IMG/VR virus record: IMGVR_UViG_3300028888_000044
Span: 195,539-259,538 of that record
Origin: a virus
Taxonomy: Duplodnaviria; Heunggongvirae; Uroviricota; Caudoviricetes
DNA length: 64,000 nt
Reading direction: 5' to 3' (one strand)
Part shown: in pieces, positions 1 to 53,777 of the stretch
Layout of the letters: every line of letters begins with the position of its first letter
Numbering within the stretch: the first letter of the stretch is position 1
Notes under the pieces: model-generated
Told to the model about the DNA's origin: nothing
What the model saw: only the letters and a program-made list of their open reading frames with translations
The model's database searches: none
Translations under genes and position numbers: made by a program

Positions 1-141
1 ATAATCATTATAGTCTTGTTCCAAATAATCACTATACATATCGTCATCACTCATTGGATTTTGGAAATTGTCATCTGCCATCCAAGCATCTTCGTCTTGA
101 TGGTAAAATTCTCTTAATGATTTCTTCTTTCTTAATTTCAT
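1..141 (-). CDS. hypothetical protein, partial (MKLRKKKSLREFYHQDED...), runs off window
   Basis: Read by eye; ATG overlaps the TGA of the 138-296 ORF. Confidence 0.5.
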   Translation of the reverse strand, partial: MKLRKKKSLREFYHQDEDAWMADDNFQNPMSDDDMYSDYLEQDYNDY

Positions 142-6755: not shown

Positions 6756-7163
6756 ATGGCAAAGAAGAAAAATATAAACGTAGAAGAAGAATCTACAGTA
6801 AAACAAGTTAAAGGTTCTAAATCAAAGAAGAGTTCAACAAAACAAATTGAAGAGGCACAACAAATTGTAGAGACCGCAATTATCGACCCTCTTATTACAA
6901 TTGCAGATGTAGATGAAGCCGAATCTGTAACTGTAACAGAAACAACATTGGTTGCAGACGAAACACCACTCAAGATAATTGATGAATACGTTGAACCATT
7001 TGTTGAAGAACCTAAAAAGGAAGTTGAAATCCACAAGGAGGTTGTTAAGACTGAACCTAAAAAAGTTAAAGTTGCTGTAAAAAATAAACCTAAAAATAGA
7101 AAGATAAACAGTGTGTTTGGTGATTTTACATATAATTGGAATGGTCAAAGCATAGAGTATTAA
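6756..7163 (+). CDS. hypothetical Lys/Glu-rich protein
   Basis: ORF track; low complexity. Confidence 0.7.
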   Translation: MAKKKNINVEEESTVKQVKGSKSKKSSTKQIEEAQQIVETAIIDPLITIADVDEAESVTVTETTLVADETPLKIIDEYVEPFVEEPKKEVEIHKEVVKTEPKKVKVAVKNKPKNRKINSVFGDFTYNWNGQSIEY

Positions 7164-7166
7164 ATT

Positions 7167-7727
7167 ATGAAGAAGGATTATACAAGAAAGATGCTTGAGA
7201 CAATAAGGGAAAGTGTCTCTAGTGTACAGAAAGAAAGAAAGAAACCAGATGTACCTATCCTTGAAGAGGATAAGGAAATGTCAATGGTTGAAGCAGCAGA
7301 CTACCTTATGAGCAGACAAGAGAAGGGGTTTCTGTTGGAAGAGGAAGACAACGATAGCTCAAAGGAAGAATTCGTGATAACAAATAAGACACCGCAGTTC
7401 GGTGATGTGTTTACATCTCAAGAGGACACACTAAAGAAGACAATCGGTGAAGGAATAGAGCTAGGTGAAAAGGCATTAGTGTTCTATCCAAAGGACAAGG
7501 ACTTGGTTTTGAGCGGCAAGATAAATTCAATGAGCATTGCATTCCAATTCAGATATGCTGACCCATCTGGTGATGGTGTATACATATGGGCAAATGGTTT
7601 GCAATTGACAGAATCAAATTCAAGGACAATAGGTAAGATACGTGATGCGTTCACAAATTGGAAACAAGGGTTGGTGCAGAACGGTGATTTGATGGATAAA
7701 TTATATAAAGTAGCGACTAAAAAATAA
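7167..7727 (+). CDS. hypothetical protein (IRES/ILEE/LLEE motifs, possible head protein)
   Basis: ORF track. Confidence 0.7.
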   Translation: MKKDYTRKMLETIRESVSSVQKERKKPDVPILEEDKEMSMVEAADYLMSRQEKGFLLEEEDNDSSKEEFVITNKTPQFGDVFTSQEDTLKKTIGEGIELGEKALVFYPKDKDLVLSGKINSMSIAFQFRYADPSGDGVYIWANGLQLTESNSRTIGKIRDAFTNWKQGLVQNGDLMDKLYKVATKK

Positions 7728-7732
7728 CTAAT

Positions 7733-7888
7733 ATGGGTATTCAAAGATTTACCAACAAGAAGAAGACTGTTTCATTACCTAACAGTAGGCTTAATACATT
7801 AATGCGAAAGAATGCACTTATTGAAAAAATGGAAGCAAGAATCCAACAAGACAAACACAACAAAAATAAGTCTTGCATATGGAAGTAA
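7733..7888 (+). CDS. small basic hypothetical protein (51 aa, MGIQRFTNKKK...)
   Basis: Read by eye; 5 nt after the previous stop. Confidence 0.5.
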   Translation: MGIQRFTNKKKTVSLPNSRLNTLMRKNALIEKMEARIQQDKHNKNKSCIWK

Positions 7889-7953
7889 AATTATAACCTA
7901 AAACAAGTTTCAATTATATTTATTTTATATAATTGAAACTTATTTTTTTGTAT

Positions 7954-10900
7954 ATGAAATACAACAATATTATATCAGAGAGCTTGCGTGACTATGTTAG
8001 ACAGTCATTGATAACTGAAGAAGATTCACGCATCAAAGGTACTAAGAATGCAATAAAGAGGTGCGTTGCAACAATTATCAAGGAAGACATTAACAGTGAA
8101 AATGTACAGAATTTATCATCTGAAATATGGAATTATTATGTGGTAAAACCAATTGCAGGAGAAAATCGTCAGCTTGACGAATATATTGCAATTAGAAATA
8201 ATTCTACTATATTGGTTAAAAGCGTGGTTAAGTACGATAACTGGGATGACGAGTTTTATGTGCTAAAGTACAAAAGATTACGTGATAACTTTGAAAGATT
8301 GATACAATCTCAAAGGATTGATAATAAGTCAAGTATAATTGATAATGAAAAAGGTAATATTCATCATTGGGCAACAAATAGGCAAGTTGAAGATTTGAAA
8401 GCTAGTGAAAATACAAATAACGGAAGATATAAATACACAGCTTACAAAATTGATGATTATGACACACCAATTGAAGGATTGGGAATGACTATTATTGAAC
8501 TTGGAATGTATACTGGTGGTCAAGGCTCAGTACCATTGTGCTATACTCAATCTGAAGATACGTATAACCAATATACAGATGATAATAAATATGCAATATA
8601 TGCTTTGTTGCGAGATGGATGGCAAGATGAACCATGTGAGATTGGTGAAAACTATCCATTGGACAGTTATGGGCTTTCAATGATATTTGTAATTGTAGAT
8701 GATAAAAACAAGGTGGTATACAATAATGTAAGATGGAATCACGGTCCTCAACATTACAGTAGAGATGTTGACCATATATTGTCATTTACTGAATTGAATG
8801 ATATTGTTGGTAGTTCCTTGATGCATAAGATTGGAGTTCAAAATGAAATGGACAAGTCTTTTTCATTGACTAAAGACGTTGAATCAAGATTACAACAAGG
8901 TGAATCTCCTTCTCAAATATTTGATTCATTTAATGAATATGATTTAAGATATAATCGATTGGCTCGTGTTAAGTATAAAGGTATGTATAATTACCTAACA
9001 AGCAACTATGACATTTTCAGCGATATTTGGTTTGATAGCGCTTATAGTTTTAGAGAAGGTGTAGCAATGGTTGAAATCAATAGGCTCCGTAATTACTTGA
9101 AAGAAGATGGTACGTTTGTCTATAACAAACCAATAGACGAATGGTTAGACTATGCATTTCCTTTTAGTGATGGGTTGGCTTGTGTTGAAGTTAACTTTAA
9201 ATATAACTTTATGCGAAAAGATGGCTCCATGTTGTTGGATAAATGGTATGATAATGCTGTGCCATTTGATGATGGGTATGGAACAGTATGCGATGATAAA
9301 AAATGGAATGTAATTGATACTAAAGGAAATTTCATGTGGGAAGAATTCAAGTTTGTAGATTGTAGAATATTATTCCCACCTAATGAATTCGGCTGTTATA
9401 ATGTGTCTACTACTAATGGTTGGAACTATCTTAATAAGAATTTACAACCAATGTCAAAAGAATATTTTGATAATTGTTTATACATGGAGAAACTAAAAAA
9501 TGATTTTGTTATTATTAGAACTACTATCAAACCATTTAAATATATTGGAACTGATGGAATTTTGCATGATGAGCCACAAGATTTAACCCCAATAATATCG
9601 AACAACAATCCATCAATGCTTACTGAAGACCGCAAGCAACAGATTAGGTCAATCAGAAACAAGATACGTGATGTTATAATAAGAAAGACTAGCGTTTTGA
9701 AAAATTTTGACCAATCAAAAATAGAGCAATTGGTTGATGATGTATGGAACAAGTATGTTGAACACCCTAATAATGGAGAAAAACGTCAGAATGACGAAAT
9801 TACAATCATAAATCAGAACATTCAAAGATTTGTTCCATTTGTAATTTCAACAAGAGATGGCAATGTTGAAATTGTTAAGACAAGAAAATTGAGTAATTGT
9901 TGGGAAAACTTCATACAAGCGCAAAAGCAGAATAAAGGTGTTGATTTGCTTGGTGATGACAATATTGTTTATTGGAATGCAAAGAACGAATATGATGAAG
10001 CATTGAAGTCAGTAAGAAATACAGAATATGAAGGAAGTTATAATTATACTGCATATAAGATTGATGACTACGATACCCCAATTGAAGGTTTGGGAATGAC
10101 ACTTCAAGAGCTTGGACTGTATACTGGCGGACAAGGTGCTGTTCCTTTGTGCTATACACAAAGTGATGATACATATTATGATTATACAATGGATGGCAAC
10201 TACAATATGTATGCGTTACTACGTGATGGATGGAAGGGTGAAAAATGTGAAATTGGGAAAGACTATCCATTGGACAGTTATGGACTCTCAATGATATTTG
10301 TCATTGTGAACAATAATGGATATATTAAGAACAGTAACGTAAGGTGGAATCACGGACCAGAACATTATACAAGAAGTGTTGACCATATTTTATCATATAA
10401 TGAATTGGCTAAGCTTGTTGGTAGCAACATAATGAAACAAATTGGGTCTAACTATGATGTTGATAATATTTCACTACGTTTAACATTTAATGTTGAACAA
10501 GCACAAGCAGAAGGAGCATCCATTTATGATATAGTTGAAGATACTTTTGAATGGTTCGAAGGATTCCAGATGATTAAATATAATGATAAGTACAATTTCA
10601 TAGATGAATCAGAGGAATTGTTATGTGATGATTGGTTTGATGGCGGTGGAGATTTTAAAAATGGTTATGCTCGTGTATGCAAAGAAGACAAATGGAATTT
10701 AATAGACCGAAATGGAAACTTTGTGTGGCCTTATGAAGACCCTAATGAGTGGTTTGATTTAGTATGGGAGTTTGAATACGGTTTTGCAAAAGTAACCAAA
10801 AACGGAATGGAGAATGTGATGCGGACTGATGGTACGTTAGTATGGAATACTTTAAATACTGATGATTGGTTTAATTTTGTTTATCCATTTAGAGATAAAG

Positions 10901-13900
10901 TTACAATGGTTATAAAAGATGTGAATGGACGTAGAAAATATAACTTCTTAAAGAGAGATGGTACTTTGATTAGTCCAGAAATATGGTTTGATGAAGCTTC
11001 AGATTTTGGTTGTCTTAAATGGACAACTGTATATATCGGTTCCAAATTGTATAAGTTGACAATTGACGGTGAATTGATAAAATACAAAGATGAAGATGAA
11101 GAGCCATCAATAACATTTGATGAAAATGGCAACGTTATTGAAGAAAACAAAAATCTTCTCACAGAAGACCAGAAGAGAACTATTAGAAACAAGATAGCAA
11201 GAGGTATCGTAGCAATTACAAACCTTGATATTAATAGCCAAGAAGTACAAACATTGGTTGATGAAGTTTGGAATACATATGTCAAGCATCCAATTGAAGG
11301 TGAAAAACGCCAGAATGATGAGATTACTGTAATCAATCAGCTTGTGGGCAGATTGATTCCTTATGTTATTCGAATGCGTCAAGATGGTTCATTTTATGTT
11401 AATAACAATAAACGTATTCACGACAGTTGGGAGAATTTGATACAAACCCAAAGGCAAAATAGGGAAACAAGACAATGGCAAGACAATCAGAGCTTGACTT
11501 ATTGGGGTATTAATAAAAAGTACAATGATGCTGTACAAGCAGCACAATATCAAAACAACAACAACAAATATCATTATAGCGTTTTTAAGGTTGATGGTTA
11601 CGGTATTCCAATCAAAGGCTTGGGAATGACAGTTAAAAGCCTTGGTAACTATACTGGCGGTGAAGGTGCAGTACCATTGTGCTATACACAAAGTGACGGT
11701 ACATATAATAACTATACTAGCACCAATAGGGATACTATGTATGCATTATTGAGAGATGGATGGCAAGCCGAACAATGTAAAATCGGTAAAGGTTATCCAT
11801 TGGATAGCTACGGCCTTTCTATGATATTCGTCATAATAAACCATAATGGAAAGATAACAACTAGCAATGTAAGGTGGAATCACGGACCTAAGAGATATTC
11901 AAGAAGTGTTGATAATATATTCACTTATAAGGAATTGACAGATATTGTTGGTAGCGATGTAATGAACCAAATTAGAGCACAAGTTGAAGTTGATAAATCT
12001 ATTCAAATGACATATGAGGTAGAGAAACAATTGAATGATGGTGAAGAGCTTGAAGATATATTTGATGAGTTGGAAATACAAGATGATAAAGATGTAATTA
12101 TTGTCAGATTCAATTGGTATTATAACTTACTTGTTATTAACAAGGAAAATATGTACTTACTGTCAGATGAATGGTTTGACCATATTAGTAGAGTTAATGA
12201 TGACGTTTTTTGTGTAAAAAAAGGTACACAATATAATATAATGAAAACAGATGGCTCATATTTGTTTGACGAATGGTTGGAGGATGCTTTTGTTAATAAA
12301 ATTAAAGGTCAGAATTGTGTTACAATTTGCAAAGACCACGTTTACAATATATTATTACAAGATGGGACATATCTTTTTGATGAAGGATACTCTTTTGTAG
12401 GTATATTTAAAAATGGTTGTGTAAGGGTTGAAAAGTTGTACAATGGTACACCATTGTGTAATTTAGCAGATGAAAACGGAAAGCTTATATGGGACAAACC
12501 AGTTGAATTATGGTTTAGTTGTGTTTCTAATAAGTATCCAGGATTATATCCAGTACGTATTGTAAATAAACATAATTTATTAAGAAGTGATGGTACATTG
12601 CTTTTGAATACAACAGATGTAAATGAATGGTTTACTACTTTGTATTATCATTATGCTTACGAGTTATACTTTGTGAGAAAAAATAGAAAGTGGAATCTCA
12701 TTACTAAAGACGGTAAAATATTATGGGACAAACCAGAAAATTTATGGTTTGATAAAATAGAACCAGAAGGAAGTTCGTGGGGTTTTGCTGTCAAAAAGGG
12801 TACTAAATGGAATTACATGCGGTATGACGGTACATTAATATGGAATCATGAGAATCCGAGAAAATGGTTCGATTCGGTAGCAGTGTCAGATGACGAGTGC
12901 GATGCTATTGTATGTAAAAAAGGTGTAAAATATATACTGTATAGACATGGTGAACTTTATGAAAGAGATGATTACGGTGATTATGTAGAAGTAATTGATT
13001 TTGCAAATAATGGTAAACCAATATATGCTGATGAGTCTACATTAATCAAAGAATCTCTCAAAGAATATATAAAGGAAAACTATCAAATGCTTGTTGAAGG
13101 CAGTACAATCAAGACTATCAGAAACAAGATTGCTAGAAGCATTAGTGCTGCAATTGGAGCTGATATGAATGATGAACAAGTTCAACGTTTGACAGACGAT
13201 GTTTGGAACACATATGTTGTTGCACACAATAGGCAGAATAGGGAATATACAGCAATCAACAAGAACATTGAAAGACTTATACCATATGTGCTTAAGAAGA
13301 ATTCAGACCATACGTATGAAATAAGGAAGACAAGCAGAATCAAGAACGGTTTTGAGGCATTGATTCAAGCCCAACGCGAAAATATGGAAGCGCAGATACT
13401 TGACAAGCATAACAATAGTCTATTCTCTTGGTATGCTGACAAGTCATACAATGATGCAGTTGAAAATGCCAAGAAAGAAGTATATGAAGCAGACCATATT
13501 TATAGTGCCTATAAGATTGAAGACTACGATATTCCAATCGAAGGTTTAGGAATGACAGTTAAAGAACTTGGTCAGCATACTGGTGGTGAAAATACTGCAC
13601 CATTGTGTTATACACAAAAGGAAGATACATATAACCAATTTACGCATGGTAATGCATACACGATGTATGCTTTGCTTCGAGAAGGATGGCAAGATGAGCC
13701 TTGCGAAGAGACAGAAGGGTATCCATATGACAGTTATGGGTTGTCAATGATATTCGTTATAATTGATACAGAAGACGAAATTAAATTCAGCAATGTTAGG
13801 TGGAATCACGGAGACCATTCATATCCAAGAGTTGACGAAATGTTCACATATCAATCTCTTACAAAGGTAGTTGGTAGTAAAATAATGAATTACATATGCG

Positions 13901-16900
13901 CTAATCATAAATTTGCAGTAGATTATTCTTTAACTTTAACCAAAGAGTTTGAAGAAGACAAGTCAAATAATAATTTGAATGGTAGAAAATATGAGATTGA
14001 CACTGATGAATATGACGGTTATAGGATTATAAGACGTAGAGTATATGGGAGTGCTGTCATGTGTTATAATTATGTTGATTCAAACTTGGGCTTGTTGACA
14101 CATAGATGGTTTTATTCTGCGTACAGATTTGACAATGGTTGCGCTGTAGTAAGAAGCCTTAGTAATCAAAAGTATAACATATTAAGGACTGACGGTACAT
14201 TTGTATGGGACAAACCAGAAGATGAATGGTTTACATATGCTTTCATATATTATGGAAGAACAGATTATATTATGGTTAGAGATGAAAATGGGAATTATAA
14301 TCTTCTAACACAAGATGGTCATTTGTTCCTTGACAAGTGGGTTCAAGCCATTGAACCTTTTGATTCGAATGGTGTTGCTAGAATACGTATTGATAACAAG
14401 CTTAACTATATACGAACAGACAAAACATTTGTTTGGGATAAACCTCATAACGAATGGTTTGATGGCTTGGATAGAGACAAATTCCAGAATGGTATAGCAA
14501 AGGTATTCATTGATGGTAATCCTTTCTATTTGGATTTGAATGGTAATCTGTCTAAAACACCACATCAAAACACAGCCCTAATGGAGTCAATAAAGAAGAA
14601 TTTCTTGTTGCTCACAGAAGACCAGAAAAAGACAATTCGTAACAAGATAGCAAGAGGTATCGCAGCTATTACACAAATGGACGTTGCAAGTCAAAAGGTT
14701 CAGTCACTGACTGATGAAGTATGGAATGCTTATGTTGTTCATCCAGTTGAAGGTGAGAAACGTCAGAATGACGAGATTACTGTTATAAATCAACTTATAG
14801 ACAGATTGATTCCATATGTCTTGAAGCAAAATGATTCTGAAAATTACTTTATAAGCAACAATCCAAGAATACATAAAAGTTGGGAGAACTTGATACAAAC
14901 TCAACGTCAGAATAGAAAAACACAAGTATGGCAAGACAACGAAAACCTATTGTATTGGAATACAAAACAAGCTTATGGCTCGTTAAAGTCAGACCCTTAC
15001 TTTAGTGGGCAATATCATTATACTGTTTACAAGGTAGAAGACTACAATACACCAATTGAAGGCTTGGGAATGACTGTTACAAAACTTGGCAAGTATACTG
15101 GTGGACAAGGTGCTGTACCTTTGTGCTATACACAATCTCAAGGTACATATAACATTTACACAAACAGCAACAAATTCAATATGTATGCATTGTTGCGCGA
15201 TGGATGGCAAGATGAACCTTGTGAAATTGGAGAGGGTTATCCATTAGACAGTTACGGATTATCAATGATATTTGTAATTGTGTCCCCTAATGGAGGTATT
15301 GAATACAGTAACGTTAGGTGGAATCACGGACCTAAACAATACACAAGACGAGTTGATAATATTTTCACAATCAAACAATTAGCACAAATTGTAGGAAGTT
15401 ACGTTGTAAACCAAATTGGAATTAATAACAATATTAATTCTACACAACTCACATATGAAGTTGAAGATAAGTTAGCACGAGGTATCGATTGGTTACAAAT
15501 ATTCCAAACATGTCATAGAAATTGGAACAATGTATATGAAGTGAGTTATAAAGGACAACAAAATATCATTGACAGTGAAGGTATATTGCTTAGTGATATT
15601 TGGTTTGATAGAGTTCAAGCAATGGATGATTATTTCATTGTTAAAAAAGAAAACCTATACAATCTGTTACGCTTAGATGGTACTTTCATTTGGAATAAAC
15701 CATTAGATGAATGGTTTACAAATGAGCCACTAGAATTTAGAGAAGGTTACACTAGGATTAAAGTTAATGGAAGGGCTAATCTGCTAGGTAAAGATGGACA
15801 ATTGCTATTACCTTATGAAGACATTAGTCAGTGGCCTTCACGCATTGGTATGATGAAGAATAGTTTGGCTGTGGTAGGATGTGATAATGGCAAACGTAAT
15901 TTTATCAATAGAGAAGGAAAATACATTTGGAATAAACCGATAGAACAATGGTTTGATTGGACTGACAGAGTTGACCATTTTACAGATTATATATATGTCG
16001 AAAGGGAATTTGACGAGGATGAATTTGGTAACTTACTTAGACTCGATGGTACGTTGGTTTGGGATAAAGAAGACCCACACGAATGGTTTGATTCGGTTTA
16101 CTATGATGATGTTTATTTTATGGAAAAGGGTTTTGTTAAAGTACAAAAAAACAACAAAGAATTAATGTTAAGCCTTACTAATGGTACATTGCATACTATT
16201 GAAGAGTATAAAAAGATACAGCAACAACTTAATGAGAATACCAATCTGCTAACAGAAGACCAAGAACGTACAATTCGCAATAAGATTGCGCGTGGTGTCG
16301 CAACCATTACACAAAAGGATGTTGCAAGCCAAGATGTTCAATCGATGACTGACGAAATATGGAATGTTTATGTTAAACATCCAATTGAAGGCGAGAAGCG
16401 ACAGAATGACGAGGTTTGGGCAATCAATACAGTGATTAGTCGTTTGATACCATATGTAGTCAAACAAAATGAGGAAGGTAATTTCTTTGTAAACAAGAAC
16501 TCAAGGATTAAGGATGCCTTTGAGAATTTGATACAAGCGCAAAGGAGAGAGCAGCAGTCAAAGAAACAGTTGTGGAATAACGATGAAAGTTTGACCTATT
16601 GGAACGTAAATAGGAAGTATAATGATGCAATTGATGTAGTAAATCAAAAACAAACTGTAGGTAAATACAATTATTCCATTTATAAGGTTAATGGTTATGA
16701 TACTCCAATTGAAGGATTGGGAATGACTGTTAAACAACTTGGCAAGTATACTGGTGGCCAAGGTGCTGTACCACTGTGTTATACTCAATCTGAAGATACA
16801 TATAACCAATATACATACGGCAACAAATACAATATGTATGCTTTATTGCGTGATGGATGGCAAGATGAACCTTGTGAGATTGGAGAAGGTTATCCATTGG

Positions 16901-17802
16901 ACAGTTACGGATTGTCAATGATATTTGTAATTGTAGATAATAAAAACAATGTGGTATACAATAATGTAAGATGGAACCACGGTCCAAAAGGTTATCCAAG
17001 ACGAGTTGATAATATTTTCTCTTATCAAGAATTGTGCGAAATTGTTGGTAGTAATGTAATTAGACAAATAGGAATTGTTAGTGATGAAATAGACAAGTCA
17101 TTGAGGCTAACTCAGTATGTCGAACAAAAATTACAAGAAAAAGTCCCATTATTTGATATATGTAGTGATTGTAGGAAAGTGTTTGGTACTGATTATTACA
17201 AATTTAAGTTAGATGGACTAGAAAATATAATTGATAAACAAGGTAATTTGTTGTCTGATTATTGGTTTGAAAATATTGATTATTGGGGTAATGGATTCTT
17301 TAGAGTTGCCAATAACCATAAGTATAATTTTATACTGCCAAATGGTAGTTTTGTCATTGATAATAAAGATACTTCTCAATGGTTTGAATATGTTGGTACT
17401 TTTTATTATAGCAATAGTGCGGTTACAGTAAAATTAAATGATAAATATAACTACATACGATATGATGGCGCATATGTATGGGACAAGCCTTGGGAAGAAT
17501 GGTTTGATGATGCAACTAGTTTTGATGATAAGGATGGAGTTGTAGACGCTTTTGTATATAAAAAGTCTGAAATTGATGATACACTGAAAGCTAATATAAT
17601 ATTGGTTGATGGAACATTAATGTTTAACGAATGGGTTAGTGAAGACGATTTTCACGAAGATGAAAATGGTAACGAAGTTTGCCAAGTAACTAAAAACGGC
17701 AAATACAATTTGTTGGACATAAGTGGATATTTAAAATATAGAAATTTTATGGATTTTGATGATTTCAAGAAGGTTTATCCGAAAGCTGTTTTACAACAGT
17801 AA
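7954..17802 (+). CDS. giant six-module repeat protein: conserved C...DxYG...RWNH core plus WG beta-repeats
   Basis: Six copies of PIEGLGMT..PLCYTQ..DSYGLSMIFV..RWNHG, each followed by WG-type repeats (WFD.A..F..G.A.V....NY...DG); ATG at 7954 preferred to TTG at 7933. Confidence 0.9.
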   Translation: MKYNNIISESLRDYVRQSLITEEDSRIKGTKNAIKRCVATIIKEDINSENVQNLSSEIWNYYVVKPIAGENRQLDEYIAIRNNSTILVKSVVKYDNWDDEFYVLKYKRLRDNFERLIQSQRIDNKSSIIDNEKGNIHHWATNRQVEDLKASENTNNGRYKYTAYKIDDYDTPIEGLGMTIIELGMYTGGQGSVPLCYTQSEDTYNQYTDDNKYAIYALLRDGWQDEPCEIGENYPLDSYGLSMIFVIVDDKNKVVYNNVRWNHGPQHYSRDVDHILSFTELNDIVGSSLMHKIGVQNEMDKSFSLTKDVESRLQQGESPSQIFDSFNEYDLRYNRLARVKYKGMYNYLTSNYDIFSDIWFDSAYSFREGVAMVEINRLRNYLKEDGTFVYNKPIDEWLDYAFPFSDGLACVEVNFKYNFMRKDGSMLLDKWYDNAVPFDDGYGTVCDDKKWNVIDTKGNFMWEEFKFVDCRILFPPNEFGCYNVSTTNGWNYLNKNLQPMSKEYFDNCLYMEKLKNDFVIIRTTIKPFKYIGTDGILHDEPQDLTPIISNNNPSMLTEDRKQQIRSIRNKIRDVIIRKTSVLKNFDQSKIEQLVDDVWNKYVEHPNNGEKRQNDEITIINQNIQRFVPFVISTRDGNVEIVKTRKLSNCWENFIQAQKQNKGVDLLGDDNIVYWNAKNEYDEALKSVRNTEYEGSYNYTAYKIDDYDTPIEGLGMTLQELGLYTGGQGAVPLCYTQSDDTYYDYTMDGNYNMYALLRDGWKGEKCEIGKDYPLDSYGLSMIFVIVNNNGYIKNSNVRWNHGPEHYTRSVDHILSYNELAKLVGSNIMKQIGSNYDVDNISLRLTFNVEQAQAEGASIYDIVEDTFEWFEGFQMIKYNDKYNFIDESEELLCDDWFDGGGDFKNGYARVCKEDKWNLIDRNGNFVWPYEDPNEWFDLVWEFEYGFAKVTKNGMENVMRTDGTLVWNTLNTDDWFNFVYPFRDKVTMVIKDVNGRRKYNFLKRDGTLISPEIWFDEASDFGCLKWTTVYIGSKLYKLTIDGELIKYKDEDEEPSITFDENGNVIEENKNLLTEDQKRTIRNKIARGIVAITNLDINSQEVQTLVDEVWNTYVKHPIEGEKRQNDEITVINQLVGRLIPYVIRMRQDGSFYVNNNKRIHDSWENLIQTQRQNRETRQWQDNQSLTYWGINKKYNDAVQAAQYQNNNNKYHYSVFKVDGYGIPIKGLGMTVKSLGNYTGGEGAVPLCYTQSDGTYNNYTSTNRDTMYALLRDGWQAEQCKIGKGYPLDSYGLSMIFVIINHNGKITTSNVRWNHGPKRYSRSVDNIFTYKELTDIVGSDVMNQIRAQVEVDKSIQMTYEVEKQLNDGEELEDIFDELEIQDDKDVIIVRFNWYYNLLVINKENMYLLSDEWFDHISRVNDDVFCVKKGTQYNIMKTDGSYLFDEWLEDAFVNKIKGQNCVTICKDHVYNILLQDGTYLFDEGYSFVGIFKNGCVRVEKLYNGTPLCNLADENGKLIWDKPVELWFSCVSNKYPGLYPVRIVNKHNLLRSDGTLLLNTTDVNEWFTTLYYHYAYELYFVRKNRKWNLITKDGKILWDKPENLWFDKIEPEGSSWGFAVKKGTKWNYMRYDGTLIWNHENPRKWFDSVAVSDDECDAIVCKKGVKYILYRHGELYERDDYGDYVEVIDFANNGKPIYADESTLIKESLKEYIKENYQMLVEGSTIKTIRNKIARSISAAIGADMNDEQVQRLTDDVWNTYVVAHNRQNREYTAINKNIERLIPYVLKKNSDHTYEIRKTSRIKNGFEALIQAQRENMEAQILDKHNNSLFSWYADKSYNDAVENAKKEVYEADHIYSAYKIEDYDIPIEGLGMTVKELGQHTGGENTAPLCYTQKEDTYNQFTHGNAYTMYALLREGWQDEPCEETEGYPYDSYGLSMIFVIIDTEDEIKFSNVRWNHGDHSYPRVDEMFTYQSLTKVVGSKIMNYICANHKFAVDYSLTLTKEFEEDKSNNNLNGRKYEIDTDEYDGYRIIRRRVYGSAVMCYNYVDSNLGLLTHRWFYSAYRFDNGCAVVRSLSNQKYNILRTDGTFVWDKPEDEWFTYAFIYYGRTDYIMVRDENGNYNLLTQDGHLFLDKWVQAIEPFDSNGVARIRIDNKLNYIRTDKTFVWDKPHNEWFDGLDRDKFQNGIAKVFIDGNPFYLDLNGNLSKTPHQNTALMESIKKNFLLLTEDQKKTIRNKIARGIAAITQMDVASQKVQSLTDEVWNAYVVHPVEGEKRQNDEITVINQLIDRLIPYVLKQNDSENYFISNNPRIHKSWENLIQTQRQNRKTQVWQDNENLLYWNTKQAYGSLKSDPYFSGQYHYTVYKVEDYNTPIEGLGMTVTKLGKYTGGQGAVPLCYTQSQGTYNIYTNSNKFNMYALLRDGWQDEPCEIGEGYPLDSYGLSMIFVIVSPNGGIEYSNVRWNHGPKQYTRRVDNIFTIKQLAQIVGSYVVNQIGINNNINSTQLTYEVEDKLARGIDWLQIFQTCHRNWNNVYEVSYKGQQNIIDSEGILLSDIWFDRVQAMDDYFIVKKENLYNLLRLDGTFIWNKPLDEWFTNEPLEFREGYTRIKVNGRANLLGKDGQLLLPYEDISQWPSRIGMMKNSLAVVGCDNGKRNFINREGKYIWNKPIEQWFDWTDRVDHFTDYIYVEREFDEDEFGNLLRLDGTLVWDKEDPHEWFDSVYYDDVYFMEKGFVKVQKNNKELMLSLTNGTLHTIEEYKKIQQQLNENTNLLTEDQERTIRNKIARGVATITQKDVASQDVQSMTDEIWNVYVKHPIEGEKRQNDEVWAINTVISRLIPYVVKQNEEGNFFVNKNSRIKDAFENLIQAQRREQQSKKQLWNNDESLTYWNVNRKYNDAIDVVNQKQTVGKYNYSIYKVNGYDTPIEGLGMTVKQLGKYTGGQGAVPLCYTQSEDTYNQYTYGNKYNMYALLRDGWQDEPCEIGEGYPLDSYGLSMIFVIVDNKNNVVYNNVRWNHGPKGYPRRVDNIFSYQELCEIVGSNVIRQIGIVSDEIDKSLRLTQYVEQKLQEKVPLFDICSDCRKVFGTDYYKFKLDGLENIIDKQGNLLSDYWFENIDYWGNGFFRVANNHKYNFILPNGSFVIDNKDTSQWFEYVGTFYYSNSAVTVKLNDKYNYIRYDGAYVWDKPWEEWFDDATSFDDKDGVVDAFVYKKSEIDDTLKANIILVDGTLMFNEWVSEDDFHEDENGNEVCQVTKNGKYNLLDISGYLKYRNFMDFDDFKKVYPKAVLQQ
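8443..16983 (+). repeat. six ~300-bp dispersed direct repeats within the giant gene (cores near 8443, 10054, 11584, 13510, 15028, 16681)
   Basis: Near-identical DNA such as ccaattgaagg.ttgggaatgac and tggacagtta.gg.ct.tcaatgatatt; spacing about 1.5-1.9 kb. Confidence 0.9.
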
Positions 17803-17881: not shown

Positions 17882-18055
17882 ATGATAAATGAGAATAGAA
17901 TCAGACAGATTGTGTCTGAAGAAATAATGAAAGAAGAGATAAACAAGTCCGATGAAAAGAGGATTAAGGAGATTGTCGGTGATTGCATCAATGAATTGTT
18001 CAAGCAGTTATGGCAAAAGAATTCTTTCTGGAAGAGTACTATTATGAATGCATAA
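17882..18055 (+). CDS. small protein (57 aa, MINENRIRQIVSEEIMKEE...)
   Basis: Read by eye; carries the IVSEEI motif shared with other late genes. Confidence 0.65.
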   Translation: MINENRIRQIVSEEIMKEEINKSDEKRIKEIVGDCINELFKQLWQKNSFWKSTIMNA

Positions 18056-18444: not shown

Positions 18445-20952
18445 ATGCGAATATATAACAAGGCATCAATCATCCTCAAGGAAAACAAGTCAGAGGAAAA
18501 GAGACGTATTGATGCGCACAACAAGACAATCAATGTTGTAAACAAATATTTCCATAATTTCAGTCCGTATCTTGATTCTATGACGGATGGTAATATTAAA
18601 ATGTCAGATTCAATCGTACAACAGATTGAAACTGATTTTTTTCATGGACTTACGTCAAAACCAGTCATAAGGATTGAACCGTTGATTGCACAAATTGCAT
18701 TGGAGTTTGGCTATGGGCAGAAAGATGCCGTACCTCAAACAAAGATGCTTATCAATTTGCGTAACATAGTACAAATTATACATACCAAGACACGCAATAT
18801 TGACAACCCATTGGATGTCCAGAAGTTGAATGCAACAACGTATGACGATTTTTACAATCTATGTTCCAAAGAATTGGAGGAACTGTATAAATTGGATGCT
18901 CAAGCAAAAAATTATAACAACAATTCAACAAATACTAACAATGGAGGATTAGAAGCTCAAATATATCAAAATACACAATATAGGATATTATCTAATGTTA
19001 CATACGACCAAGCCAATGAAATAGGAAATGAAAGTTGTCCAACAAGTAGGCTTTGTTATACACAATCATCGTCAACTTGGAAAAGTAGTAACTATTCTGA
19101 CTCTGGACGTAACAAGTGCTATGTTCTTTTGAAGGATGGGTGGGAAAATATACCAGCCGTTCATCCAAATGGTGGTTCAAGCCCATATGATGAATACGGA
19201 CTTAGTATGATATTTCTGTTTGTGTCACCACAGCCAAAGAATGATTTGGTGGCTTGCAATACGAGATGGAATCACAGAGCAACATACGAAAGTCCACATT
19301 ATACAGATATGGCACTTACAAAAGACGAAATAGCCAAGTTGCTTCACATTAATTCTTTTGAAGACGTGTTTGTCGGTTACAAAAAAGAAGAAATTGAGAC
19401 CAACAATCAATTTGATTTTTATCGCTTGAATCAAGCTATACAGAATGGTGATTATTCCTCATTAAATACACAAGAGATTAGTGACAAGTTATGGATTGTA
19501 ACATATGCAAATTATTATAATGTGATAAATTTGGTCACTAAAAAATTGGTATCAAACAGATGGTTTAACCATATAGCGTATCAATCATTTAATTATCTTT
19601 CTGTTGAAATTGATTATGAAGGGGAAAACTATTTGAACATTATGAATACTAATGGAGAGATTATTTCAAAAACGTGGTTTGATAGGTTAGATATTAATAA
19701 CGAAGAACATTATGTAGTATGCCGTAATACACAAATTCCATATACAGTGGTTTATGAAGACTCTCCAGAATTGAAAGTGTTAATTGAAGTGAATGAAGAT
19801 GCTCGTGACATAAATTTTGAAACGGAACCCCCTACAGCAGTAATTAAAGGATATGTTACATCATTAGGGCAAAATCCAAAGAAGCTAGTAAAACTTCTAA
19901 GTAGATATGATAATTTATGTAAAGCTGGTAAATTTATTGCAATAACTATAGAAGATGATGTAGAATATTATACTAATAAAGGAGAACTGATAACATCATA
20001 CTCTCAAGAATCATTAAATGAGGCTGACGATGTAGTGTCTCAAAACGGTGAATATTTAATTACACAAGATAATGAACTTGTAAGATACGATGGTAAAGTA
20101 ATTCCCACACCAAATGATGGTGAATGGTTTATATATGGCAGTTTCATAATATTCTCACATAATGTCAGCCCAAAATGTGATATTTATAATGAAGACTCGA
20201 AATGCTTGTTTAAGAACGTATACATATCTCCGTCATATACAAATGCCGACAAGAGTTATTTTGCAATGTGCGTTTATGATAGTGATTATACAAATTATGA
20301 TAAAAAAGTCAATCTTATTTTTAAAAACGGAGAGCTTCTTTTTGACCAATGGTTTGATGGAAGAATGGTTGATAATTACTGTATAGATGACTATGAATCA
20401 AGATATTATTTAATGTCTTTTGAATCTAGATTCAATGGTAAAGAACGTTGTTATTTCATAATAGATAGGTTAACAAATGATGTTGCGTTGAGTTTTATAT
20501 TTCAACACGTAAGATTTAATGTTTATAAAGACGTATTGAGTGTGAAATATAGTGCAGATGAAGGTGAGTTATATTCATTGAGCAACAGAAAATTAATAAT
20601 GAAGTGTGACCCAGCAGTTGAAGTAACTAATACTCACTACACAAACAACGTATATATGACATTTTGGACTTTAAGAGATACTATTTGTATAATGAATTGT
20701 AATACTTGTGAAATACTTATTGAAAGCAACGAATTGATTGATGCAATTTTTTATGGCGATGTTGCCGTATTTGTTTATGAAAACAACACATGCTGCTTTT
20801 ATGACTTAATACAAAATAAGCAAATATCAAGAATGTATACACATGTGCGCAAATGTTCAATGTCAACACCTAAGGTATTTACTTGCCTAGATGAAAACGA
20901 AAATACTTGGTTCTTTGATGTTGCATCAAAGAAAGAGATAGAATTAACATAA
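18445..20952 (+). CDS. single-module paralog of the giant repeat protein
   Basis: RLCYTQS..LLKDGW..PYDEYGLSMIF..NTRWNH core; degenerate WF-containing beta-repeats C-terminally. Confidence 0.85.
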   Translation: MRIYNKASIILKENKSEEKRRIDAHNKTINVVNKYFHNFSPYLDSMTDGNIKMSDSIVQQIETDFFHGLTSKPVIRIEPLIAQIALEFGYGQKDAVPQTKMLINLRNIVQIIHTKTRNIDNPLDVQKLNATTYDDFYNLCSKELEELYKLDAQAKNYNNNSTNTNNGGLEAQIYQNTQYRILSNVTYDQANEIGNESCPTSRLCYTQSSSTWKSSNYSDSGRNKCYVLLKDGWENIPAVHPNGGSSPYDEYGLSMIFLFVSPQPKNDLVACNTRWNHRATYESPHYTDMALTKDEIAKLLHINSFEDVFVGYKKEEIETNNQFDFYRLNQAIQNGDYSSLNTQEISDKLWIVTYANYYNVINLVTKKLVSNRWFNHIAYQSFNYLSVEIDYEGENYLNIMNTNGEIISKTWFDRLDINNEEHYVVCRNTQIPYTVVYEDSPELKVLIEVNEDARDINFETEPPTAVIKGYVTSLGQNPKKLVKLLSRYDNLCKAGKFIAITIEDDVEYYTNKGELITSYSQESLNEADDVVSQNGEYLITQDNELVRYDGKVIPTPNDGEWFIYGSFIIFSHNVSPKCDIYNEDSKCLFKNVYISPSYTNADKSYFAMCVYDSDYTNYDKKVNLIFKNGELLFDQWFDGRMVDNYCIDDYESRYYLMSFESRFNGKERCYFIIDRLTNDVALSFIFQHVRFNVYKDVLSVKYSADEGELYSLSNRKLIMKCDPAVEVTNTHYTNNVYMTFWTLRDTICIMNCNTCEILIESNELIDAIFYGDVAVFVYENNTCCFYDLIQNKQISRMYTHVRKCSMSTPKVFTCLDENENTWFFDVASKKEIELT

Positions 20953-20972: not shown

Positions 20973-21218
20973 ATGGAAAACAAGATTAACAGAATAATCA
21001 GAGAGGAAATCGACAAGCTGATTAGCGAAATGGATGGCGGTGGTGTCGGTGGTGGCGCTGAAGGAATGGGAAGCGGTGTAAGTTCCGTAGGTGGAGCTAC
21101 CTCAACAATGAGCACTATGCAAGGAGGTGGAAGCAATCCAGACTCTGGTCAATTCATTCAACCTATGACAAAAGTACAAAGGAGAAACATATATAAACCA
21201 AAGACACAACAACCTTAA
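20973..21218 (+). CDS. small Gly-rich protein with N-terminal IIREEI motif
   Basis: ORF track. Confidence 0.7.
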   Translation: MENKINRIIREEIDKLISEMDGGGVGGGAEGMGSGVSSVGGATSTMSTMQGGGSNPDSGQFIQPMTKVQRRNIYKPKTQQP

Positions 21219-44924: not shown

Positions 44925-44960
44925 AAAAAAAACAGTATTAGAAATAATACTGTTTTTTTA
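44925..44960. terminator. bidirectional terminator
   Basis: AAAAAACAGTATTA-GAAA-TAATACTGTTTTTT. Confidence 0.85.
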
Positions 44961-45332
44961 TGCTTTTTTCATATGCTGTGCTATATCACCAGCCTCATCT
45001 TGCTTCAAATGGTAGTGTCCACCTCCAGGTGCTTCTTCTCCATTTATTTCTTTACGCAATTGGCTTGCATAAGAATTTACCTTATTAACTTGTGCACTAT
45101 TATCAGTTTTTGTACTAGCACCTATTAATTTAGCAGCCATACTTCTTATATCAAGGAATCCTTCATCATTCATCTTTTTAAGATATGCTGCAAATTGGTC
45201 TGTTCCTTTGGTATCAGCATCATCTTCATTTGATTTATACCTTGATTTATTATTATCTTTTTCATTCAATTTTACTGAATGAGTATATCTACGAATCTCT
45301 TCAGATATGATTTTATCAATTTTTTTCATCAT
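44958..45332 (-). CDS. hypothetical protein with IISEEI...LNE leader
   Basis: ATG at 45332/45329; TATTTAT on the - strand at 45349-45355. Confidence 0.7.
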   Translation of the reverse strand: MMKKIDKIISEEIRRYTHSVKLNEKDNNKSRYKSNEDDADTKGTDQFAAYLKKMNDEGFLDIRSMAAKLIGASTKTDNSAQVNKVNSYASQLRKEINGEEAPGGGHYHLKQDEAGDIAQHMKKA

Positions 45333-48649: not shown

Positions 48650-49950
48650 ATGAATCTATTAGAAGAACTCAAGTGGAGGGGTCTTGTAGCTGAAGACTCT
48701 AGTGTGAGTGGTAATCTCAATCAGTTGTTGAACAAGGAAAAGACCACATTTTATGTTGGAACAGACCCAACTGGTCCTTCTCTCCATATCGGTCATTTGC
48801 TTGCTTTCATTGTGGCACGTCTCTTGCAGAACCACGGACACAAGCCAATTGTATTGGTTGGTGGTGCAACAGCTTCATTGGGAGACCCATCGTTCAAGGC
48901 AGAAGAACGCAAGCTTCTGTCTATGGAAACCATTTTCGAGAATGCCGACCGTATCAAGAAGCAGTTGTCACATCTGATTGACTTCAATTCAACAGAGGAC
49001 AATGCAGCCGTTATGGTAAACAACTACGATTGGATGAAGGATATGACATTCCTTGACTTTATCCGCGACATCGGCAAACTCTTGACAGTCAACTATATGA
49101 CTGCAAAGGAGTCTGTAAAGAGACGTTTGGAGAGACCAGATTGTGGTTTGTCATTTACCGAATTCAGCTATCAGTTGCTTCAAGGTTATGATTTTCTTGT
49201 CTTGAACAAGAAGTATAACTGTAAGCTTCAGATTGGCGGTAGCGACCAATTCGGCAATTCAATGACTGGTGTGGAACTTATCCGCAAGAGTGGTGGCAAT
49301 GCTGAAGAGTGCGGAGTAATGACGTGGCCTCTTGTTACACGAGCTGACGGTACTAAGTTTGGTAAATCTGAGGTGGTAAGAATATTTGGCTTGACCGAGA
49401 AATGACTTCACCATATGAGTTTTATCAGTTCTGGTTGAATCAGTCGGATGATGATGCTGAAAAGTTCATTAAGATGTTCACTCTTCTCGATGTTAAGAGG
49501 ATTGAATCGCTCATTATCGAGCATCACGAAGCACCACATTTGAGAATCTTGCAGAAGACACTTGCCTATGAAGTGACCAAGATGGTTCATTCAGTAGAAG
49601 ATGCTGAATTTGCTGTTAATGCTTCTAATGCATTGTTTGACAAGAACACTACAATTGACACCTTCAAGGGCTTCAATAGGGAAATGCTTCTTGATATTTT
49701 CAAGGGTGTTCCACAATACAACATTCGCAAGTCTGTTGTTGATTCCAAACCGACTTTCGTTGACTTTGCCAATGAAATTACATTTGCAAATAGCAAGGGT
49801 GAGGCGCGAAGGGAAATCAAGAACGGAGCCTACAGTATGAATCTTCGAAAGGTGGCGATTGATGATATGGTCTCTTCAGATGACTTGATTAATGACGAGT
49901 TCATTATTCTCAAGAAGGGAAAGCGTTATTCACTTGTAACAGTGCATTAA
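48650..49950 (+). pseudogene. tyrS: tyrosyl-tRNA synthetase split by a 1-nt deletion at 49372-49373 (or sequencing error)
   Basis: GTDPT..HIGH, QIGGSDQ, KFGKSE; the other frame continues GKNIWLDREMTSPYEFYQFW to the S4 domain. Confidence 0.85.
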
Positions 49951-51512: not shown

Positions 51513-53777
51513 TTATAATACTCTGAATAATTCTTCTCGTATAATGGATTGAATTCTGTTCATTCTGTTTTCTGATAATTGCGGTCTATATTTATTTCCA
51601 TCCTTGTCAAAGTAATCACTATGATAATGATAAAAAATGTAATTGTTGTTTTCATCGTGTAACAGCTTACGTTTTGGTATACTATACAAGCAAGCTTTAG
51701 TAATATAAGGATTGTCATTAGTCATTGTTCCTTTATAAGTGTAGTAACTTGTAGAAAAATAGTTATTAGGAAACACTGTTTGGTATCTACCACCTTCATC
51801 AAGTTCAATAACAAGTATATTATAATCGCCACCATTAGTATTAATAAATAGAGTAGGCTTATCACTTAATTTTCCACAAATAGGCTGACCGTTAAGTGTA
51901 ATATTTTGTTTTGTTTCCAAATCATATACATAATACAAATCTTCACCTTTAAGCTTATATTTTATAACACCATTGTATCCATTTAAGTTACTAAAATATT
52001 GATGCCCATTAATATTGAAAATAGAATTATCAAATATGTTTTTATAAAAATAACCAAAATCTCTATTATATAACATCACATATTCATCATTTAAAGCATC
52101 TTCCAAACCACGTATTTCTGTATTTTCTGGTAGATTGCTATTAACATTTGAAAATGAATCTGTTACTGTGTTATAAAAATAATGTTCTCCAGCTGATGAA
52201 TCATATACAAGGTGAATTAATTTAGCGCTATCAGCGTTATACTCAATTCTTATATGTCGGTTATAATCAGTCATACTGTTTGGCATATTATATAGAGTTT
52301 TACCAATATACTCGAACCAAACAGCACCTCTTGGTGTTCTTACTGGTTTTAAAGTATCCAATTTAATCAACGCGCATTGACTACCGTTAACTACAACAAT
52401 ACCATATTTACTATCTTTGTTTAGATATTCCAAACTACTTGATATGTCCTTAAATTTAGTTACACCATCAATATTAAGGAATTGATGCCTTCTTTTGTCG
52501 AATATATATATTGGGTCACTATAACTATATAGAGTATAAAAATTATTATGGTCTTTTATATTATACCAAACACGTTTATTTATGAACAAATCTTCAAAGA
52601 AGATTTTTTTTCTATCCATAACAGTGGTCCATTCTTCTTCACCACATTTTAAACGTAAAAAATATGTTCCATTAATCTTGCTGTCATTTTTACTGTCTTC
52701 GTCAAAACAACTAAAACTAAGTCCGAAACCTTCCATACTATTATATCTATCATATACTTCCTTCACACTAGCGCCACCATTAAGAAGCATTTGGATATAT
52801 TTTATATGTCGTAAGGCATTTAATTTATTTTCATATGCTTTGGACCTATCGAAAGAATTTTGTTTTGGTTTATTGGTTTTCCATTGCTCATACGCTCTCT
52901 CCAATACAGAATAGTCGCAACCAATAATATTCAAGAATTCATTTGTTGTGTATGCGTGGTCTGCTTCAGTACCACTTGTACCATCAAGAGTAGAACCGTG
53001 ATTCCACCTAGAAGTAATATATATAGGTTGTGGAGATGAATTACTTTGCAGTACACATATCAATGAATTACCGTATTCGTCATGCGGTTTTTCCTTTGTA
53101 TAACCTTTTCCAACTTGTCTTTTTACTTTTTCATATCCTTGTCTTGCAAATACAACATAATGAATGTTAAGCCTTGATATGTATCCTTTATAGTGCTGCT
53201 CTCCATATGTTATGCACCAAGCTCCAGGCGAAGTTGCGTCTTTGTATTTTGTCGCATCTTCATATGAATAAAGTATTTCATATGTATACTTACCAGCTGT
53301 ATAGTCATCGCTTACAGATGGTTGCTCTACCCCCTTTTTAGGCTTTACATCAATACCCAAAGCCTTATTTATCTTTGAATTATATTTCCTTAACAGCTTA
53401 TCCAAAGGAATATTTCCGAAATCTTCAGTCAATTCCCATTGCGTACCAACGGAATCAATATAAGAATTACGCAATATTTCGATAAGTGTATCCAATCTGT
53501 TACATATTTCTGGAATAAACTTGTCTTTCACCCTTGGGTATAATATATTAATCATTTTGTTCGTGGTAAGATTACCGTTGAAGTAATATATCGCTACGCC
53601 TAGAAGGTAAAAGTTGCTATGCAGTGAAAGATTATGTATGTTAGCTTCGTTTACAAACTTTGTTAAAAGTATGTTCTTCAATTGGCTAATAGAAACATTT
53701 ATCCCACGCTTTTGCAAGAGAGGCATGAACCTTTCCAAAGCTTTATCTCTAACACCTTCAATCAATAAATTTTTCAT
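51513..53777 (-). CDS. divergent single-module paralog of the RWNH-core family
   Basis: WCITY...PHDEYGNSLI...TSRWNHG; N-terminal LLIEG, C-terminal IIREEL. Confidence 0.8.
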   Translation of the reverse strand: MKNLLIEGVRDKALERFMPLLQKRGINVSISQLKNILLTKFVNEANIHNLSLHSNFYLLGVAIYYFNGNLTTNKMINILYPRVKDKFIPEICNRLDTLIEILRNSYIDSVGTQWELTEDFGNIPLDKLLRKYNSKINKALGIDVKPKKGVEQPSVSDDYTAGKYTYEILYSYEDATKYKDATSPGAWCITYGEQHYKGYISRLNIHYVVFARQGYEKVKRQVGKGYTKEKPHDEYGNSLICVLQSNSSPQPIYITSRWNHGSTLDGTSGTEADHAYTTNEFLNIIGCDYSVLERAYEQWKTNKPKQNSFDRSKAYENKLNALRHIKYIQMLLNGGASVKEVYDRYNSMEGFGLSFSCFDEDSKNDSKINGTYFLRLKCGEEEWTTVMDRKKIFFEDLFINKRVWYNIKDHNNFYTLYSYSDPIYIFDKRRHQFLNIDGVTKFKDISSSLEYLNKDSKYGIVVVNGSQCALIKLDTLKPVRTPRGAVWFEYIGKTLYNMPNSMTDYNRHIRIEYNADSAKLIHLVYDSSAGEHYFYNTVTDSFSNVNSNLPENTEIRGLEDALNDEYVMLYNRDFGYFYKNIFDNSIFNINGHQYFSNLNGYNGVIKYKLKGEDLYYVYDLETKQNITLNGQPICGKLSDKPTLFINTNGGDYNILVIELDEGGRYQTVFPNNYFSTSYYTYKGTMTNDNPYITKACLYSIPKRKLLHDENNNYIFYHYHSDYFDKDGNKYRPQLSENRMNRIQSIIREELFRVL

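Follow-up and report, generated by a model that had tools for sequence, protein, structure and literature searches.

The giant open reading frame (ORF) described here lies at positions 7954..17802, on the plus strand, of a 64,000-nucleotide stretch of tailed-phage DNA. This stretch (the window) is G000:C1:195539-259538 of a single virus record of 387,538 bases (IMGVR_UViG_3300028888_000044), with 34% G+C. ORF calling gave a protein of 3282 amino acids and 385 kDa, and a start at an in-frame TTG at 7933 would lengthen it by seven residues. No alternative genetic code is required, as table 11 gives an ORF coverage of 90.5% and TAG ends 32 of the 432 ORFs.

The protein is built of six modules of 536, 513, 644, 507, 546 and 514 residues (59-76 kDa), and the sequences PLCYTQ, YGLSMIF and RWNHG each occur in it exactly six times. 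Modules 1 to 6 begin after LITE, MLTE, LLTE, MLVE, LLTE and LLTE, respectively. In front of them lies a 22-residue N-terminal leader, NIISESLRDYVRQSLITE (7954..8019, plus strand), which its likeness to T4 leaders predicts to be a capsid-targeting propeptide and which contains the first site, LITE (residues 19-22, 8008-8019). On the same strand follow module 1 (8020..9627, 62.8 kDa; core 8416-8832), ending in MLTE (9616-9627); module 2 (9628..11166, 60.1 kDa; core 10027-10443), ending in LLTE (11155-11166); module 3 (11167..13098, 75.6 kDa; core 11557-11973), ending in a leader-like linker with the site MLVE (13087-13098); module 4 (13099..14619, 59.4 kDa; core 13483-13899), ending in LLTE (14608-14619); and module 5 (14620..16257, 64.2 kDa; core 15001-15417), ending in LLTE (16246-16257). 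Module 6 (16258..17799, 60.2 kDa) consists of a helical domain (16258-16653), a core (16654-17070) with Cys2942, Asp2983, Arg3006, His3009 and Asp3019, and a WG-type tail.

A module comprises about 130 residues of helical part and about 140 of core; its WG-type tail adds 214-349 more, with repeats spaced by 34-42 residues. The Pfam family WG_beta_rep (PF14903) matches the protein with E 1.6e-9 (38.1 bits, cut-off 25.6). Between modules, pairwise identity is 59-76% in the core, 22-62% in the helical part and 24-35% in the tail. The first-pass annotation had described six units of about 500-640 residues, each opened by a hydrophobic-x-Glu junction and composed of a helical segment, a conserved core and divergent WG-type repeats, and the measured modules agree with this description. 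Its further statement that every unit carries a different binding domain holds in so far as the tails have diverged; all six are of one WG repeat type.

The six-module ORF is real and well formed. The modules are at most 83% alike in DNA and the longest exact repeat is about 53 bp, which makes a plain repeat collapse unlikely. One contig of the probable source run covers 7000-14844 without a difference, and the rest is covered by three overlapping contigs. Assembly of a chimera from shorter module genes could be suspected, as the full-length protein forms a singleton among the collected proteins, a two-module gene stands at this place in a near-identical strain, and joint 4/5 is bridged by at least 31 letters only in the probable source run, the contigs of other samples ending 27 letters past the site or starting 10 before it. 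The divergence of the modules speaks against a chimera, as does the bridging of four joints in other samples: joints 1/2 and 2/3 in X4 (with a replaced stretch just before 2/3), joint 3/4 in X4, X5, X6, X7 and X8, and joint 5/6 in X6 and X8. In addition, a three-module paralog is found full length in 4 assemblies and relatives with three to four cores exist. We regard a chimera as extremely improbable.

Sites at the module joints and predicted cleavage

T4-type prohead proteases as a general rule cut after L/I-x-E. Nine of the ten hydrophobic-[LIM]-x-E tetramers of the giant protein fall within its 132 linker residues and one within the 3150 residues of the module bodies, a placement that is therefore not due to chance. 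The looser pattern [ILM]-x-E reaches 106 per 1000 residues in the linkers against 5.7 in the module bodies, and within the six modules it is depleted (18 seen, 30.8 +/- 4.9 in shuffled sequences, P 0.004). Four of the five linkers hold a second, upstream site, use of which would cut the linker out. The short linkers 1/2 and 2/3 have lost the leader helix and kept LTE; linker 3/4 and the linkers of the three-module paralog are near-whole copies of the N-terminal leader.

Module starts in relatives were located by a profile of the helical domain that leaves out the site, and were counted only if the match began in the first 6 positions of the profile. Among 85 de-replicated proteins (of 178), [ILM]-x-E precedes the helical domain at 39/41 internal and 42/49 N-terminal starts, the background being 7.8% of 2070 windows. 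A later-fetched set of 134 proteins gave 40/40 internal and 84/86 N-terminal starts (background 9.7% of 2882 windows), so that over both sets the motif precedes 79/81 internal and 126/135 N-terminal modules (background 8-10%). The logo of the site reads [LI]-[LI]-[TNLS]-E, and the residue after the Glu is N, S, D or G. The site also stands at joints to ART-PolyVal, NUDIX and nucleotidyltransferase domains, and in 12 relative sequences read through by eye the domain boundaries usually carried the motif.

The genome encodes a T4-type major head protein, a portal, a terminase and a head maturation protease. The latter is a gp21-type prohead protease that matches PF03420 above cut-off at G000:C1:386439-387356 and phrog_207 with E 3.6e-36. 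Within its N-terminal 61 residues the head protein has five copies of the site motif, the last being LLSE, and the protease carries the motif as LISE near its C-terminus. The density of the motif is 28 per 1000 residues in the presumed scaffold, which was recognised by position and composition and matches no family, compared with 14 in the proteome. Over all ORFs, the motif is three times commoner in the first 30 residues than in the middle.

A copy of ATATTTAT, a candidate late promoter element common to head genes, lies upstream of the giant ORF at 7916..7923 on the plus strand. The motif [AC]TATTTAT is present before 72 of the 432 ORFs (27 in antisense), mostly 20-40 nt ahead of the start, and those ORFs include the scaffold, protease, portal and terminase genes and the giant ORF. 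It is absent before primase, SbcC, DnaK and the leaderless paralogs; it is likewise missing just ahead of the head and sheath genes, whose transcription may start at a more distant upstream point. ORFs that encode a leader have the motif more often than others (17/47 vs 51/319, P 0.002). An RNA run (X12) gave short contigs only, at low depth.

Phage T4 supplies a precedent both for targeting to the head and for cleavage, in its internal proteins and Alt (PMC3012670, PMC5694885). IPI-III and Alt, processed by gp21, likewise begin with a leader that ends in hydrophobic-x-Glu, and the genome studied here has a T4-type protease, capsid and portal. According to PMC5694885, the proteases of T4, phiKZ and SPN3US cleave after Glu, and cleavage of T4 Alt at ITE-6 and LTE-619 leaves a mature protein of 68.2 kDa; sites and size match the joints and the module sizes of the giant protein. 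No kinship in sequence between the giant protein and the T4 internal proteins or Alt came to light. The T4 protease trims end propeptides or shreds scaffold, whereas here six folded paralogs of 59-76 kDa are predicted to be released from a 385-kDa chain.

The idea of a capsid-packaged polyprotein cut after hydrophobic-x-Glu, put forward in the first-pass annotation, gains from the comparison, in which the motif recurs at the module starts of relatives and in the scaffold and capsid propeptide. It is well supported by comparative evidence, and we consider it very probable that the protein would be packaged in the head and cut at its joints. Some observations pull the other way. The count began with a narrower pattern, which gave 49/66 (background 7.1%) and 39/59; [ILM]-x-E was adopted after Leu had proved common at the middle position of the misses. 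Modules were dropped if the alignment of the helical domain did not reach its start, and the relatives are not independent of each other. For the stricter tetramer, the depletion within modules falls short of significance (1 against 4.4 expected, P 0.06). PMC10052503 reports for SPN3US that about 80% of the head proteins (42 such) stay uncut and that only end propeptides are removed.

The joints might instead be leftover leaders of fused genes, in a protein that is packaged and works uncut like a polyvalent protein. The near-whole leader copies in linker 3/4 and in the three-module paralog would suit such an origin, as would the gain and loss of modules at leader sequences between strains, and many giant-phage head proteins remain uncut (PMC10052503, PMC5694885). 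The short linkers that dropped the leader helix and kept LTE, the retention of the site at nearly all internal joints and its avoidance inside modules argue for cleavage, and we hold the uncut protein to be distinctly unlikely.

Two observations concern the protease gene and the record's ends. The gene (G000:C1:386301-387443; L007:1363-2505) contains an insertion of about 150 residues that starts with Cys, ends with Asn and weakly matches an intein-bearing PHROG, probably a mini-intein. The first 106 bases of the record recur exactly at 387133, inside the 3' part of this gene, hence a circular record, its overlap left untidy, is probable.

The conserved core and its possible chemistry

In an alignment of 249 de-replicated rows, the core residues are conserved as follows: Cys 99.6%, Asp 99.6%, Ser 100%, Arg 100%, Asn 99.2%, His 96.8% and a second Asp 93.6%; Cys, Asp, Tyr, Gly, Ser, Arg, Trp and Asn each reach at least 98%. 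The Cys, Asp, Arg and His that had been called invariant are thus near-invariant, with Ser, Gly, Tyr, Asn and Trp equally conserved, and some relatives keep the fold of the core without the Cys or the His. Neither the core nor the helical domain has a Pfam, PHROG or NCBIfam model. The predicted structure of the core (pLDDT, the model's own local confidence score, 94.8) has a sheet of four strands, the first two of which are connected by two helices. The Cys sits in the loop between these helices, and RWNH comes directly after strand 4.

Structure prediction and Foldseek, which the first-pass annotation had proposed as a check, brought no solved relative of the core and a resemblance to the first half of the GNAT fold. 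Foldseek found nothing at E 0.001 in PDB, and nothing at that threshold in a viral structure library, where the best values were 0.004 and 0.008. ESM Atlas returned no usable match for the window's module, and the helical domain resembled generic bundles only (Z up to 4.8). Among 48,161 chains none reached Z 5 with the core, the best having Z 4.4 and a root-mean-square deviation of 4.3 over 90 aligned residues; no papain-like fold was among the significant rows.

The resemblance raises the question of an ordinary acetyl-CoA-dependent GNAT acetyltransferase, comparable to Rac of phiKMV. Of the 50 top structural rows, 36 are titled acetyl- or acyltransferase or GNAT, a second structural search (Z 3.8) was likewise dominated by GNATs, and the predicted order beta1-alpha1-alpha2-beta2-beta3-beta4-alpha3 fits GNAT beta1 to alpha3. 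GNATs are moreover present in polyvalent proteins and jumbo phages (PMC5512222, PMC7824862). The alignments, however, span only the first 100-120 GNAT residues at Z no higher than 4.4, family conservation stops after alpha3, and conserved Cys and His stand in the core instead of GNAT motif A (R/Q-x-x-G-x-G/A). As this motif is absent in 249/249 rows, the core is not a standard GNAT, and we rate an ordinary acetyltransferase as very improbable.

Mean-field coevolution analysis (effective depth 150) recovered the sheet pairings of the core. The pairs W37-T100, V39-T100, C38-N104, S35-D106 and H105-D113 rank among the best 40 of some 7270, and they mostly stay in the top 60 over 8 subsamples and also without the window's clade. 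These couplings support a position of the Cys beside RWNH and suggest one pocket of Cys, Arg, Asn, His and Asp. We therefore lean, by a small margin over even odds, towards a core that is catalytic through its Cys with His-Asp. The choice we make is a predicted Cys-His-Asp thiol enzyme, with acyl transfer, deamidation and peptide cleavage as options, and one such catalytic core per module is plausible. No peptidase family of Pfam, PHROGs or NCBIfam matches the giant protein above cut-off; if there is an embedded processing peptidase, it could be the core.

Against an enzymatic role stand several points. Part of the rows in the conservation alignment had been collected by means of the conserved motif, coevolution carries little weight at near-invariant positions, and the best core Z of 4.4 is within the range of unrelated models. 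Sequence comparison of the core with PDB gave no hit in one search and one chance hit at E 2 in another, and the Foldseek search of PDB was equally empty. A protein that is packaged and cut could thus carry a core that binds a ligand, as a nucleotide or acyl-CoA sponge, or docks in the head, leaving the work to the tails: conserved Arg, Trp, Asn, His, Tyr and Asp would suit a binding pocket equally well, no catalytic family was matched, and the fold persists in the relatives that lack Cys or His. Conversely, the Cys is nearly universal and couples to the RWNH segment, distant paralogs without a leader retain it, and what the genome's other presumed cargo proteins have in common is the leader, not the core. 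A non-enzymatic core is in our estimate unlikely.

Kinship to PcfJ, which the first-pass annotation had loosely suggested, is weak. The order beta-helix-[WH]C, a later Tyr and R..N after the fourth strand of PcfJ (PF14284) align in register with the core, PcfJ-named viral models are among the weak Foldseek rows, and 7 of 30 Atlas feature hits were clusters with 25% PcfJ. In contrast, the PLDxYGLS insert and the RWNH His of the core are absent from PcfJ. A profile of 6 PcfJ proteins matched the core without significance (E 0.42, or 0.095 through intermediates), the PcfJ model found 2 of 66 core members at E 0.07 and none over its curated cut-off, and the genome has no Pfam PcfJ match. The literature that was searched, with most subscription papers outside it, gave no function for PcfJ.

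Interchangeable tails and the fate of the pieces

A profile search with the core collected 1,266 clusters at 50% identity; at the 90% level, the longer proteins number 854. Architectures were surveyed in 30 selected loci proteins and in 32 of the 51 longest new hits. In these relatives the core is followed by WG repeats, BspA-type leucine-rich repeats (LRR) or Fib_succ_major tails, and it is chained with ART-PolyVal (ADP-ribosyltransferase, ART), NUDIX and nucleotidyltransferase domains. A catalytic-Cys domain joined to a swappable repeat recruiter is a known architecture, as in NEL-LRR effectors; the constant Cys core with variable LRR, WG or lectin-like tails is comparable by analogy only, with no match in sequence or fold. 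Two further arrangements were observed. P0082, P0097 and about 60 near-identical proteins of 1035 residues represent a widespread two-module protein in which an ILSE site links the core to another WC-type core of a different kind. A 2607-residue relative (L057:3950-11770) has three cores with LRR tails, and by eye it contains ADP-ribosyltransferase-like and true motif-A GNAT segments between site motifs.

These architectures recall polyvalent proteins, large multidomain phage proteins that are predicted to be packaged and injected (Iyer et al. 2017, PMC5512222). The paper lists ART, GNAT and nucleotidyltransferase domains, ascribes release to embedded zincin-like and assemblin-like peptidases, and draws the analogy to polyproteins. 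ART-PolyVal, NUDIX and Pol-beta-type nucleotidyltransferase partners are shared with the relatives of the core. Polyvalent proteins, however, carry several biochemically different domains per chain and embedded peptidases, whereas the giant ORF repeats one module type and has a fixed site for an external protease at every joint. Modifiers packaged in the head are also described for jumbo phages (PMC7824862, PMC9503650). The giant protein is likely a variant of T4-type head cargo and polyvalent proteins, distinguished by full-size repeated modules, exchangeable tails and reshuffling between strains. The passages of PMC5512222 that were covered do not name this core (PcfJ has 0 occurrences); the core family is an unnamed and widespread phage domain, although the supplementary domain lists of PMC5512222 and the supplements of PMC7824862 may already name it. 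In the literature covered, with most subscription papers outside the search, no paper on phage polyproteins with a prohead protease or on WG repeats in phage was found.

The proposed course of events is the following. The giant ORF would be transcribed late, from the upstream motif common to head genes, and the leader would direct the protein into the prohead core. There a T4 gp21-type prohead protease would cut it at six sites into six proteins of 59-76 kDa, and these pieces, of the size of Alt, would be ejected into a host that is probably one of the Bacteroidales. Each core would then be a Cys-dependent transferase or hydrolase, the tail picking the host macromolecule on which it acts, and together the pieces would form a panel against variable host defences or machinery. 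That the cleaved pieces would be ejected we think probable, reasoning from T4 Alt and from the fusion partners of relatives, which likewise suggest injected effectors; that the tail selects the host macromolecule is an even chance. The whole course, from head cargo precursor to six ejected, target-selective Cys enzymes, we favour slightly.

In bacteria, WG, BspA-LRR and Fib_succ_major domains mostly lie outside the cytoplasm, which is odd for a cytoplasmic target and counts against this course. The modules might then be adhesins or act on the envelope, as decoration of the outer capsid or tail or by release into the periplasm, with tails that bind surface glycans or proteins. Such a role accords with tail families typical of bacterial surface proteins and with the presence of several paralogs among structural genes. 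The prohead protease sites at the joints, however, point to a location inside the prohead; the ADP-ribosyltransferase, NUDIX and nucleotidyltransferase partners need cytoplasmic substrates; and the giant protein has no membrane segment (maximal 19-residue hydropathy 1.09). We consider adhesins improbable.

If the proposed cutting by the prohead protease holds, prohead proteolysis would extend from the trimming of ends to the freeing of several full-size folded proteins per chain, a polyprotein in the style of eukaryotic viruses in a tailed phage. The core defines a large domain family that had no annotation, has a likely active site and exchangeable tails and is present in 17 copies in one genome; it is a candidate class of counter-defence enzymes in jumbo phages of gut Bacteroidales. 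The joint motif would offer a simple means to parse giant unknown phage ORFs into working domains, and the predicted cuts give exact peptides to look for. A wider and tentative view, which we hold possible though not probable, is that the capsid protease site is a universal joint for the effector arsenal of gut jumbo phages. Its commonest brick would be a new Cys enzyme with half a GNAT fold, which swappable tails of WG, LRR or lectin-like type would direct to host proteins, and in this phage about 18 bricks would be reshuffled into chains of one to six at leader DNA, tuning per strain which host defences are disarmed on entry.

Paralogs, strain differences and neighbouring genes

A profile search of the genome detected 17 cores in 9 ORFs, five of which carry one core each, and several paralogs sit among structural genes. 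The three-module paralog gene lies at G000:C1:371984-379129. Another three-module paralog (G000:C1:187005-193180, L001) is split by a frameshift near 188450, either an assembly error or a real break; one core lies before the split and two lie after it. In the window, stand-alone one-module paralogs of 835 residues (18445..20952, plus strand) and 754 residues (51513..53777, minus strand) start with the leaders IILKE and LLIE, the latter as LLIEG. These are the one-unit paralogs that had been noted to open with the same kind of site, and both do contain the core. The second has a C-terminal IIREE tail and ATATTTAT upstream. The 5' end of a further one-core paralog occupies 1..141 on the minus strand (whole gene G000:C1:194216-195679, 487 residues). 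A tree of the 17 cores left 9 of 14 inner branches unsupported, and the order of duplications cannot be derived from it.

Two adjacent, distant WC-core proteins (G000:C1:280433-282790 and 283068-285023) have neither a leader nor the upstream motif, and one has by eye an ankyrin-like tail. Cores without a leader do not favour head cargo; both keep the WC segment including the Cys, and they are possibly non-packaged counterparts.

The number of modules differs between strains. The near-identical strain L073 (flanks 94-100%) has a two-module gene (L073:1984-5562) that starts like the G000 184729 gene and ends like module 6. Relative to G000 it skips 26 kb with primase, RuvC, SbcC and a sigma factor, so the join is either a rearrangement or a chimeric contig. 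Another strain (L074, L075) has a one-module gene (L074:359-2386) where the G000 site is empty. There the join falls in a short repeat coding for the leader helix, and the empty site holds a short leader remnant (G000:C1:89047-89130). Because linkers copy the leader and these sequences are where strains gain or lose modules, it is likely recombination at leader and module-start DNA that makes and breaks the chains. If the polyprotein arose by recombination between leader-coding and module-start sequences, one gene and one leader would therefore load the whole panel of specificities.

In three gene pairs compared between strains, the ratio of non-synonymous to synonymous substitution rates (dN/dS) was 0.03-0.16 in cores and 0.48-0.90 in tails. 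Cores are under purifying selection between strains and tails much less. Positive selection on the tails was looked for and not seen, dN/dS being below 1 in every pair, a point against the proposed course.

Most runs that contain the stretch are gut metagenomes of sheep, cattle and goats or gut samples without further specification (24 rows, 13 studies); one of these runs may be the source. All 5 of 5 cellular loci with a core relative are in Prevotella, Bacteroides or Bacteroidales assemblies, and a Shine-Dalgarno-like word precedes 13 of the 432 ORFs compared with 17 in a control window; the host is therefore probably a Bacteroidales bacterium. In annotated phages, tblastn gave no match for a typical module and one weak tail match for module 6, hence no cultured relative or virion proteome was found. 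Four loci (L068-L071) have cores inside Bacteroidales contigs, two of them among housekeeping genes. L069 keeps a phage-type leader, and L068 and L069 lack the RWNH His; these cores were likely captured from phage.

Small ORFs with leaders such as RIRQIVSEE, INRIIREE and MKKxIRLTExD...ILxE are found in the window at 17882-18055, 20973-21218 and 44958-45332 (minus strand) and elsewhere in G000 at 64857, 90500, 116292, 354211, 358667 and 384656. They are likely a family of small head cargo proteins. Between 31986 and 62410 the window carries host-like and conflict-related genes: an IF-3 gene matched a family library, and others we take from their sequence to be ClpP-like, DnaK, DnaJ, a second sigma factor, RtcB-like, Ro/TROVE-vWA-like, TelA-like and DNA adenine methylase-like. 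At 48650-49950 a tyrosyl-tRNA synthetase extends over two ORFs; since its cluster mates have 433 residues, the split is a frameshift or an assembly error.

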